Of a DNA stretch of 64,000 bases, positions 10,465 to 13,897 are shown piece by piece. The stretch comes from Escherichia coli O127:H6 str. E2348/69 (GTDB lineage Bacteria; Pseudomonadota; Gammaproteobacteria; Enterobacterales; Enterobacteriaceae). The notes beneath the pieces are model-generated. The model worked only from the letters and a program-made list of their open reading frames with translations, ran no database searches and was not told the origin of the DNA. The position numbers and the translations under genes are program-made. The stretch lies in NCBI RefSeq assembly GCF_000026545.1, contig NC_011601.1. The stretch is one strand, 5' to 3'. How positions within the stretch are numbered: the first letter of the stretch is position 1; each line of letters starts with the position of its first letter.

Positions 10465-10868
10465 CTAAATGAATTTATCATGCCAAAAATACGTTGCGCC
10501 AGTTACATTTTGTGCATGAACTTGCCCATATTCAAATGTAGGTTCTTTCTTCATATGTTGCGTATTCAACTCTGGTTTACTCCAATAAATCAAGTTCGCT
10601 TCAAATTCACTCAATAGTTTCTCAGCGAAATCAAAAGGCTTAATCCATTCTATTGGGATGGTTTTGCTGTTTTTTAAAAAAACAACGCAGCACAAATATA
10701 TACGCTTTGACAAATTGTCATATTTAGGATGGTGTAACTTAGTAATTGCGCTATGGCCTGAAGAAAATCGTGAGCTCTTCGATGATGTCTTGCCGATGTA
10801 AACAAGCCTTTCATTTTCATCATCTCCAACTGTAATCAAATAAATAGGATAACAAGCTAGAGGGGCCT
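10465..10868 (-). pseudogene. GIY-YIG-like domain protein, 5' end replaced by the IS3 terminus
   Basis: Translation shows PIYLI...(11 aa)...VYIGKTS, matching the GIY-x(9-11)-YIG nuclease motif; the first codons of the track ORF lie inside the IS3 inverted repeat. Confidence 0.4.
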
Positions 10869-10898
10869 TGATCCTACCCACGTAATATGGACACAGGC

Positions 10899-11765
10899 CT
10901 AAGCGAGGTTCTGGTTTTCAAATTGTTCCGGACTGAGGCCGCCACACCAACTGTGCCGCCGCCACCGATTGTAATCACATTCGATATAATTAAACACCGT
11001 TGCCCGCATTATTTCCCGGCTGATAAAGTGTTCTCCATGGATACATTCCACTTTCAGCGAATGAAAGAAGCTTTCCACGCAGGCATTATCGTAGCAGCAA
11101 CCTTTTGCGCTCATACTTCCACGCAGATTATGCCGCTTCAGTTGCGCCTGATAATCTGCTGAACAGTACTGGCCTCCACGGTCCGTGTGAACGATAACGT
11201 TCCGGGGCCTCTTACGCCGCCATAGCGCCATCTGCAGGGCATCGCAGGCCAGTTGCGCCGTCATGCGTGGCGACATTGACCAGCCAATAACGGCACGTGA
11301 CCACAGGTCAATGACCACTGCCAGATACAGCCAGCCTTCATCTGTACGTAAGTACGTGATGTCTCCTGCCCACTTCTGGTTCGGGCCACTGGCGTAAAAA
11401 TCCTGCTCCAACAGATTTTCTGACACAGGCAGGCCGTGTGCGCGGTAGCTGACCGGGCTGAACTTCCGGGAGGCCTTTGCCCTCAGTCCCTGATGGCGCA
11501 GGCTTGCCGCCACGGTTTTTACGTTAAAGGGGTAACCCTGAGCACGCAGTTCATCCGTCAGGCGTGGGGCACCGTAACGCTGTTTTGACCGGGTAAAAGC
11601 CGCGAGGACAACGCTGTCGCAGTGTTGGCGGAACTGCTGACGCGTGCTTATCCTTGTCCGCCGCTGACACCACGTATACCAGCCGCTGCGGGCCACCCGG
11701 AGCACGCGGCACATTGCTTTGATGCTAAACTCAGCCTGATGTTTTTCAATAAAGACATACTTCAT
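10899..11765 (-). CDS. insF: IS3 transposase OrfB (InsF)
   Basis: 288-aa ORF matching recalled InsF over its length ([30 protein letters not shown]...). Confidence 0.92.
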
Positions 11766-12061
11766 TTCAGGCGCTTCGCGAAGTATGTCGCGGCCTTTTG
11801 GAGGATAGCCAGCTCTTCATCCCGTTCTGCCAGCTGGCGTTTGAGACGTGCAATCTCGGTAGACATCTCCAGTTCACGTTCAGAAGACGTCTGCTGATTT
11901 TGCTGTTTACTGCGCCAGTTGTAGAGCTGTGATTCATACAGGCTGAGTTCACGGGCTGCGGCAGTAACACCGATGCGTTCAGCAAGCTTCAGGGCTTCAC
12001 TGCGAAATTCAGGCGAATGCTGTTTACGGGGTTTTTTACTGGTTGATACTGTTTTTGTCAT
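11762..12061 (-). CDS. insE: IS3 OrfA (InsE)
   Basis: 99 aa from [28 protein letters not shown]...; overlaps insF by 4 nt as expected for the frameshift pair. Confidence 0.92.
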
Positions 12062-12126
12062 GTGAGTCACCTCTGACTGAGAGTTTACTCACTTAGCCGC
12101 GTGTCCACTATTGCTGGGTAAGATCA

Positions 12127-13897
12127 GATATCCATTACCCGCTCGCAACTGGCAATGCTCCTCGATAAGCTGGACTGGCGTCAGCCAAAAACATCCCGCC
12201 TTAACGCACTGACAATGTTGTAAAAAACGCCGGGCCGGATTATAAAAACGGCCATGAGTCAGAAATACCTCATTCGCATCGCTGAGCTGGAAAGGCTGCT
12301 CTCTGAGCAGGCTGAAGCCCTCCGTCAGAAAGACCAGCAACTGAGTCTGGTTGAAGAGACGGAGGCCTTCCTGCGCTCTGCACTGGCACGTGCCGAAGAA
12401 AAGATCGAAGAAGATGAGCGAGAAATAGAGCATCTGCGGGCTCAGATAGAAAAACTGCGCCGGATGCTGTTCGGAACCCGTTCTGAAAAACTGCGTCGTG
12501 AGGTTGAACAGGCTGAAGCCCTGCTGAAACAACGCGAGCAGGAAAGCGATCGTTACAGTGGGCGTGAGGATGACCCACTGGTTCCCCGCCAGTTGCGACA
12601 GTCGCGCCATCGTCGTCCGTTACCGGCACATCTCCCCCGTGAAATATACCGCCTGGAGCCTGAAGAAAGCTGTTGCCCGGAGTGTGGCGGTGAGCTGGAT
12701 TATCTGGGGGAAGTCAGCGCAGAACAACTGGAACTGGTGAGCAGCGCCCTGAAAGTGATCCGCACAGAACGGGTAAAAAAAGCCTGTACAAAATGTGACT
12801 GCATCGTTGAAGCACCGGCGCCGTCCTGCCCGATAGAGCGTGGTGTCGCGGGCCCCGGATTACTTGCCCGCGTGTTAACGGGAAAATACTGCGAACACCT
12901 GCCACTGTATCGTCAGAGTGAAATCTTTGCCCGACAGGGTGTCGAACTGAGCCGTGCATTACTCTCCAACTGGGTTGACGCGTGCTGCCAGTTAATGACG
13001 CCGCTGAATGATGCCCTGTACCGTTATGTGATGAATACCCGCAAGCTTCACACTGACGACACACCGGTAAAGGTACTGGCACCGGGCCTGAAAAAGACGA
13101 AAACAGGGCGCATCTGGACGTATGTCCGGGATGATCGCAATGCGGGTTCGTCATCTCCTCCGGCGGTCTGGTTCGCGTACTCATCGAACCGGCAGGGGAA
13201 ACACCCGGAGCAACACCTCCGCCCCTTCCGGGGTATCCTGCAGGCGGATGCGTTCACAGGTTATGACAGGCTGTTCAGTGCAGAACGTGAAGGTAGTGCG
13301 CTGACAGAAGTTGCGTGCTGGGCTCATGCCCGGAGAAAAATCCACGATGTATACATCAGCAGCAAAAGTGCGACGGCAGAAGAAGCCCTGAAGCGAATCA
13401 GTGAACTGTACGCCATCGAGGATGAAATACGGGGATTACCAGAGTCAGAGCGTCTTGCAGCCAGGCAGCAGCGAAGCAAAGCGTTACTGACGTCGCTGCA
13501 TGAATGGATGGTGGAGAAGAATGGCACGCTGTCGAAAAAATCCAGACTGGGCGAAGCGTTCAGCTATGTACTGAATCAGTGGGACGCCCTCTGTTATTAC
13601 AGTGATGACGGTCTGGCGGAGGTGGACAATAACACAGCGGAAAGAGCGCTTCGTGCAGTCTGTCTCGGAAAGAAAAATTACGTGTTCTTCGGTAGCGATC
13701 ACGGCGGCGAGCGTGGAGCACTGCTGTACGGGCTGATCGGCACCTGCCGACTGAACGGTATCGATCCGGAAGCGTATCTGCGCCATATTCTGAGCGTACT
13801 GCCGGAATGGCCCTCCAACCGTGTTGACGAACTCCTGCCATGGAACGTAGTACTCACCAATAAATAAGCGTCAATACGGTGTTCCGTTGACGCTTAC
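12127..13897 (+). mobile_element. IS66-family element remnant (transposase gene only; tnpA/tnpB region missing)
   Basis: Only the large transposase ORF is present; the left part is replaced by IS3; the right end lies within a hairpin-forming sequence ending ...CGTTGACGCTTAC. Confidence 0.6.
12254..13867 (+). CDS. IS66-family transposase (TnpC-like), 537 aa
   Basis: N-terminal coiled coil, CxxC...CxxC zinc-finger-like region (CPECGGE...CTKCDC) and overall resemblance to IS66 transposases. Confidence 0.8.
   Translation: MSQKYLIRIAELERLLSEQAEALRQKDQQLSLVEETEAFLRSALARAEEKIEEDEREIEHLRAQIEKLRRMLFGTRSEKLRREVEQAEALLKQREQESDRYSGREDDPLVPRQLRQSRHRRPLPAHLPREIYRLEPEESCCPECGGELDYLGEVSAEQLELVSSALKVIRTERVKKACTKCDCIVEAPAPSCPIERGVAGPGLLARVLTGKYCEHLPLYRQSEIFARQGVELSRALLSNWVDACCQLMTPLNDALYRYVMNTRKLHTDDTPVKVLAPGLKKTKTGRIWTYVRDDRNAGSSSPPAVWFAYSSNRQGKHPEQHLRPFRGILQADAFTGYDRLFSAEREGSALTEVACWAHARRKIHDVYISSKSATAEEALKRISELYAIEDEIRGLPESERLAARQQRSKALLTSLHEWMVEKNGTLSKKSRLGEAFSYVLNQWDALCYYSDDGLAEVDNNTAERALRAVCLGKKNYVFFGSDHGGERGALLYGLIGTCRLNGIDPEAYLRHILSVLPEWPSNRVDELLPWNVVLTNK

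Follow-up and report, generated by a model that had tools for sequence, protein, structure and literature searches.

The stretch of DNA analyzed here (the window; 64,000 nucleotides of Escherichia coli O127:H6 strain E2348/69, in which window position x is NZ_LT827011.1 position x + 1,152,000) carries a genomic island, which adjoins the tRNA-Ser gene serX and ghrA and contains lifA-like, nleE, nleB and espL2. In this island, one complete copy of the insertion sequence (IS) IS3 stands between the 3' remnant of a hypothetical gene and a remnant of the IS66-family element ISEc47, and no target-site duplication is present at its ends. We consider it very probable that an IS3-associated deletion occurred at this place. 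The features concerned are the following.

10465-10868, minus strand: 3' remnant (codons 77-209 plus stop) of a 209-codon hypothetical gene, delimited by alignment to the gene of KW21 and Eco_23-2667
10465-10881, minus strand: hybrid 138-codon open reading frame (ORF), with the GTG start and first 4 codons within the right inverted repeat of IS3
10866-10868, unstranded: left flanking triplet CCT, adjoining the IS3 end at 10869
10869-12126, minus strand: complete IS3, 1258 bp, with the right inverted repeat (IRR) ending at 10869 and the left inverted repeat (IRL) at 12126; termini TGATCC...GATCA
10899-11765, minus strand: IS3 orfB, 288 aa, R91H and K285Q relative to the common copy
11762-12061, minus strand: IS3 orfA, 99 aa, identical to that of the common copy
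within 11794-11801, minus strand: A-AAA-G motif for -1 frameshifting, CCAAAAGG, in the orfA/orfB overlap
12127-12129, unstranded: right flanking triplet GAT, adjoining the IS3 end at 12126
12127-13897, plus strand: ISEc47 (IS66 family) remnant, 1771 of 2541 bp (positions 771-2541 of intact ISEc47), with tnpB reduced to its final 97 nt (ending at 12223), followed by tnpC (12254-13867) and, at 13897, the right terminus ...CGCTTAC

A preliminary description of this locus regarded the IS3 as full length, and the element indeed has 1258 bp with intact ends, orfA/orfB and the frameshift site. Its length and termini are the same as those of all eight full-length copies from other E. coli loci that served as the IS3 reference set, its imperfect terminal inverted repeats end in 5'-TG...CA-3' as expected of IS3, and each of its terminal 31-mers occurs only once in the window. 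Pfam matches to HTH_Tnp_1 and rve are on record for its product, which the Prokaryotic Genome Annotation Pipeline (PGAP) annotates as an IS3-like element IS3 family transposase with programmed frameshift. Judged by these features, the element is a bona fide IS3 (IS3 family, IS3 group) and looks functional. Three substitutions are private to this copy (IS positions 400, 633 and 904) and absent from seven copies of other strains; among them, only the one at position 633 alters OrfB (R91H). When the left flank and IS3 were used together as a query, furthermore, one place was hit per E2348/69 chromosome, which thus has a single IS3 copy, versus a median of three places in genomes with IS3 matches.

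A simple insertion of IS3 is expected to leave a 3-bp target-site duplication, and none is found at 10869-12126: the flanking triplets differ (CCT versus GAT), as had been noticed before with the reservation that the ends might have been called 1-2 bp off. This reservation can be set aside, since no direct repeat of 3, 4, 5, 8 or 9 nt appears with either IS3 end shifted by up to 3 nt; only a trivial 2-nt GA does. A target-site duplication is a property of the insertion event and not of the element, and its absence is therefore the finding here. By chance alone, two 3-bp flanks are expected to mismatch in 63/64 of cases, and the CCT/GAT mismatch is informative only because ordinary IS3 insertions have 3-bp duplications; indeed, three of the comparison copies carry them, namely GAC in yneK, CAT beside an rhs fragment, and TAT. 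Homology to the intact left-flank gene is perfect through 10868 and stops at 10869, while that to intact ISEc47 begins at 12127, with the base A12126 fitting IS3 and ISEc47 alike. The present left junction reads GAGGGGCCT/TGATCC (the slash marks the join), and on the right IS3 is complete to its terminus ...GGGTAAGATCA, after which comes GATATCC (GATCA/GATATCC); this is to be read as an end made by transposase and not as a join at microhomology. Because both IS3 ends directly abut the breakpoints, we regard IS3 as the agent of the rearrangement.

These junctions are genuine and not an artefact of assembly, since three complete assemblies of E. coli O127:H6 E2348/69 share window 9000-14000, both IS3 junctions included, at 100% identity and independent short-read contigs span the left IS3 junction at 99.97-100% identity.

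Both neighbours of IS3 are truncated. The left-flank gene lacks its first 76 codons (the 5' 226 nt) and its promoter in E2348/69, with 133 codons kept, and an intact 630-nt version is present in 32 other complete E. coli genomes such as KW21; the genes of KW21 (WP_163433770.1) and Eco_23-2667 were used as references. The preliminary description had this flank as a truncated GIY-YIG-like ORF, of which the truncation stands, while the likeness to GIY-YIG is only weakly supported: Pfam PF01541 scores 19.4-21.4 bits (E 3e-4 to 1e-3) against a cut-off of 22.6 bits, and the match to the endonuclease family phrog_1111 is weak (2e-3). On the right, the preliminary description had an IS66-family element without its tnpA/tnpB part. 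In comparison with the intact ISEc47 of strain DS26-1 (L002 5232-7772; 2541 bp, flanked by the 8-bp duplication GGGTTCAA), the remnant is missing 770 bp, namely the left inverted repeat, tnpA and the first 254 nt of tnpB, and only the loss of all of tnpB has to be revised, as its last 97 nt are kept. The stretch 12127-13897 accordingly does not show the full ISEc47 arrangement of tnpA-tnpB-tnpC, GTAAGCG... terminal repeats and an 8-bp duplication, and the ISEc47 left terminus is absent from the window. The remnant is identical to ISEc47 in the stretch aligned across the junction and is ~99% identical to the DS26-1 copy when the IS3 and ISEc47 matches are pooled.

Beyond the ISEc47 right terminus, the window continues with further nested ISs.

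13898-13934, minus strand: 37-bp piece of an IS3-family (IS911-like) element, abutting the ISEc47 right terminus
13935-16467, plus strand: IS30 with the 2-bp duplication GT, inserted in the IS911-like element
15005-16314: IS629-like element with the 3-bp duplication ACT, interrupting IS30
16470-16802, minus strand: the remaining 333 bp (IRL and part of orfA) of the IS911-like element, adjoining the homology that resumes at 16803

When 13898-13934 is joined to 16470-16802, the two pieces match intact 1249-bp elements as a single piece with 100% identity; 879 bp of this element are missing in E2348/69. We take it to be IS911-like from its ends and OrfA, and PGAP gives only "IS3 family transposase". 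IS30 and the IS629-like element are ordinary nested insertions with their duplications kept, and IS3 is the exception. Since these nested ISs retain GT and ACT, the loss of the target-site duplication is specific to IS3. A second IS629-like copy is found upstream in the island (L010 16839-18149), and its flanks do not match.

What is absent between the two flanks became evident from relatives without ISs at this place. By using the reconstructed full-length 209-codon gene and the adjacent 128-aa gene in exact-protein look-ups, we retrieved draft assemblies (L026, L021 and L034 from Logan SRR11496551, and L020 and L032 from GCA_013777645.1) that are collinear with the window on either side of the IS block. 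Their gene order is hsdR, darG, darT, hsdS, hsdM, a helix-turn-helix (HTH) gene, a 122-aa gene, the 128-aa gene, the 209-aa gene, a 200-aa tyrosine recombinase, a 1083-aa ORF, and then GTPase, autotransporter, dynamin, YjcZ and patatin genes. In BLAST, L026 6273-9371 corresponds to window 7755-10868 (98.7%) and L026 14226-14413 to window 16803-16990 (99.5%), so that the 4,854 bp of L026 9372-14225 are unmatched in the window, where 10869-16802 is IS material only. The 4,854-bp segment comprises the 5' end of the GIY-YIG-like gene, the 200-aa tyrosine recombinase (Pfam Phage_integrase, 3e-18) and the 1083-aa orphan ORF, for which no match was obtained in Pfam, NCBIfam, PADLOC, PHROGs or PDB sequences. 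In terms of the genes and elements involved, the DNA missing from E2348/69 extends from codon 76 of the GIY-YIG-like gene up to position 771 of ISEc47, and one intact IS3 is located exactly at the join. The total loss would be roughly 6.5 kb (4,854 + 879 + 770 bp), provided that neither ISEc47 nor the IS911-like element had lost anything beforehand. The comparison with genomes holding an intact ISEc47 and an intact left-flank gene, which had been suggested at the outset, could thus be made on both sides.

The structure corresponds to the scar of an IS-mediated deletion: a single IS has no target-site duplication, its flanks lie apart in IS-free relatives though in collinear arrangement, and the genome contains no reciprocal junction. 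The proposal of something other than a simple IS3 insertion, with DNA removed through a deletion mediated by IS3 or through recombination of two IS3 copies, is therefore borne out by the 4,854 bp present in the collinear relatives. As to the route, we lean, if only slightly, toward an adjacent deletion by a single IS3 copy. The ancestral island had, in this order, the type I R-M/DarTG genes, two small genes, the GIY-YIG-like gene, the 200-aa tyrosine recombinase, the 1083-aa ORF, the GTPase and the autotransporter; in E2348/69, the GTPase gene is preceded by the IS nest, an IS911-like element carrying ISEc47 as well as IS30 with the IS629-like element inside. IS3 would first have inserted normally with a 3-bp duplication, either at GAT in ISEc47 tnpB or at CCT in the GIY-YIG-like gene, and its transposase would then have linked the second end of the element to a site in the same molecule at a distance of ~6.5 kb (intramolecular strand transfer). 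The intervening DNA would have been discarded, leaving one IS3 with unrelated flanks.

Several points weigh against this account. The end product is the same as that of recombination between two directly repeated IS3 copies, so that the sequence does not separate the two routes; the loss could also have taken place in several steps, and its estimated size presumes an ISEc47 and an IS911-like element that were intact before the event. No mosaic or chimeric pattern of single-nucleotide polymorphisms (SNPs) is seen within IS3 relative to the sampled copies, which decides neither route. Furthermore, intermediates, i.e., IS3 with the GAT duplication in ISEc47 or with the CCT duplication in the gene, were found in none of the 5,426 complete E. 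coli genomes, the JGI metagenomes, the GTDB genomes or the exact-protein look-ups. Such intermediates are predicted to have the junctions GACGGTAAGAT/TGATCC (GAT duplication, intact ISEc47) and GATCA/CCTCACCATC (CCT duplication, intact gene). The junction from the ISEc47 left part into IS3, GACGGTAAGATTGATCCTACCCAC, had no match in metagenome or genome (GTDB) contigs, and that from IS3 through CCT into the 5' part of the gene, GGTAAGATCACCTCACCATCACAA, had none in metagenome contigs; neither of the two fusion proteins that such intermediates would encode was retrieved in the exact-protein look-ups. Also, a reconstructed ancestor (ISEc47, IS3 and the GAT duplication) gave no single-piece match in the 5,426 complete E. 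coli genomes, the top matches being merely IS3 near an IS66-family element. Some IS3 matches seemed to extend into the query flanks (plasmids of enterotoxigenic E. coli and yneK loci), and these extensions were rejected as chance similarity. A plasmid search with the left flank returned only gene homologues of 81-83% on ~110-kb Klebsiella plasmids and no ancestral context.

Among the alternatives, the one to be taken most seriously is that IS3 inserted twice, independently and with both copies in direct orientation, at CCT in the gene and at GAT in ISEc47 tnpB, and that RecA-dependent recombination then deleted ~6.5 kb together with one IS3 to leave a hybrid copy. We regard this history as possible though not probable: it yields exactly the observed structure, GAT and CCT each fit a normal 3-bp target, and recombination between identical IS copies is a documented cause of missing target-site duplications (PMC11708052). 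It needs, however, two local insertions of an otherwise single-copy element plus the recombination step, its two-copy intermediate was found in none of the collections searched, and the absence of mosaic SNPs in IS3 lends it no support, even if that absence is uninformative in the case of identical copies. The DNA to the left and right of IS3 might instead come from different molecules joined at IS3 copies, for example upon horizontal transfer, as IS3 is located between the defence-gene module and the CP4-like backbone and such islands are mosaic. Both sides are nonetheless already linked in the same order and orientation in L032 and in L020/L026, which means that the join predates IS3 and that E2348/69 is merely without the middle; given also that a second IS3 and a reciprocal junction would be expected after a fusion, and that neither is present, we judge such an origin improbable.

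A reciprocal junction (ISEc47 left part, IS3 and the 5' gene piece) elsewhere in the genome would likewise be the mark of an inversion or translocation between inverted IS3 copies, as mismatched flanks also accompany IS-IS inversions. This junction, which the preliminary description proposed to look for, was sought and not found: the 5' 232 bp of the gene are present in 32 complete genomes and in none of the three E2348/69 assemblies, plasmids included, and the 5' gene piece is in no E2348/69 record. Because that piece is absent and the chromosome has only one IS3, with no ISEc47 left end in the window either, we regard a rearrangement of this kind as excluded for practical purposes. There is hardly more room for a simple insertion with a duplication that was miscalled by 1-2 bp or has decayed, or for an artefact of assembly. 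The ambiguity of A12126 could be cited for the former, but shifting the ends restores no repeat, the flanks are at least 4.85 kb apart in the relatives, and neither flank continues across IS3; the latter conflicts with the concordance of the three complete assemblies and the short-read contigs.

Deletions of the kind favoured here, namely adjacent deletions by IS3 itself, have precedents. DNA next to IS3 can be deleted over various lengths by the IS3 transposase while the element itself stays intact, and the endpoints share no more than 6 bp of homology (PMC8860574). The E2348/69 structure resembles the deletions described in the accounts given there (Sekine, Eisaki & Ohtsubo 1994, cited in PMC8860574; Kanai et al. 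NAR 2022, PMC8860574) in the element, in the intact IS3, in the variable-length loss beside one end, in practically no endpoint homology, and in no target duplication. In those accounts, the deletions arose on plasmids with the transposase supplied experimentally, whereas the event in E2348/69 is natural, chromosomal and fixed in a pathogen lineage, and its mechanism is inferred. More generally, IS copies without target-site duplications come from adjacent deletion or IS-IS recombination; in three evolution-experiment populations, for example, all of the 14 IS150-associated deletions were without the duplication and had been preceded by an insertion at the site in question (PMC11708052). Those deletions (14 bp-49 kb) are similar to ours in having an IS without a duplication at the breakpoint and were multistep, i.e., insertion and then adjacent deletion, but there the intermediate is documented by earlier time points, while no intermediate genome was found for E2348/69. 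Deletion through two direct IS copies (PMC11708052) gives one hybrid IS with one flank from each copy, a product indistinguishable from the present one; it requires a second IS3 nearby, and E2348/69 has this copy only. The event is thus a textbook IS-mediated deletion scar of a type already known for IS3, and what is new is descriptive, namely exactly how much DNA and which genes a reference enteropathogenic E. coli (EPEC) strain has lost, and the existence of IS-free comparators.

Further observations concern the two flanks. The hybrid ORF on the left starts with GTG 18 nt past the orfB stop. phrog_16890 matches the left-flank gene at E 1e-26 over residues 75-209, so that the remnant covers the whole conserved domain. 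The product of the hybrid ORF is predicted as a gene, with an exact match, on 16 public contigs, and a promoter scan around the ORF gave promoter-like sites at chance level only; this IS3-fused ORF of 138 codons, with the whole conserved domain, could be expressed. In one short-read contig (L014; ENA ERZ761550 NODE_722), window 9440-10923 is present as a near-perfect palindrome at the IS3 boundary, which is probably an artefact of short-read assembly. On the right, the inferred IS3 target in ISEc47 tnpB, GACGGTAAGAT/ATCC, contains 8 nt, GGTAAGAT, that are the same as the IRL terminus GGGTAAGATCA (window 12119-12135; L002 5990-6010). Only 0.26% of the window positions are within 5 nt of such an 8-mer, and this IRL-like target match is a post hoc, single observation. 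A preference for targets resembling the inverted repeat has been reported for IS911, and the match in ISEc47 tnpB recalls it.

IS66-family elements were met in other strains and contigs as well. In strain EH53 (L005 3002-4582), an IS3 without a target-site duplication abuts the 5'-truncated tnpB of the IS66-family element ISEc23 at a different position, and a second, inverted IS3 with the duplication TAT is present 1.3 kb away; IS3-truncated IS66 elements thus recur. Four contigs of another lineage (L023, L024, L028 and L029) show an independent loss equivalent to L026 10098-14282, which removed the 1083-aa ORF and the greater part of the recombinase gene, and have in its place (~10098-11737) 1.6 kb including the left part of a different IS66-family element with tnpA and a 29-codon tnpB stub. 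This left remnant was considered as the complement of the ISEc47 right part in the window and rejected, because its identity to ISEc47 is only 74-88% and it is truncated elsewhere. Also, two metagenome-derived contigs (L027 and L030, ~4536-7062, corresponding to window ~8550-8561) carry a complete IS66-family element between the HTH and 122-aa genes, with 88.8% identity to the ISEc47 remnant. The island is therefore a recurrent target of the IS66 family.

The scar accounts for three pseudogene fragments of the serX-adjacent E2348/69 island and has little import beyond annotation, while it provides a clean natural example of IS3 trimming islands. According to PGAP, darT-darG (~2098-3818) lies inside a type I restriction-modification (R-M) operon in window 1-7629, with hsdR, which the window start truncates, on one side and hsdS-hsdM on the other. 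That the lost module at the edge of this type I R-M/DarTG island, with a recombinase that would be invertase-like, was an undescribed defence or phase-variable system is a conjecture to which we give little credence; if true, E2348/69 would be a natural knockout of that module. For those who use E2348/69 as a model of a DarTG/R-M defence island, in any case, the neighbouring module is deleted in this strain.

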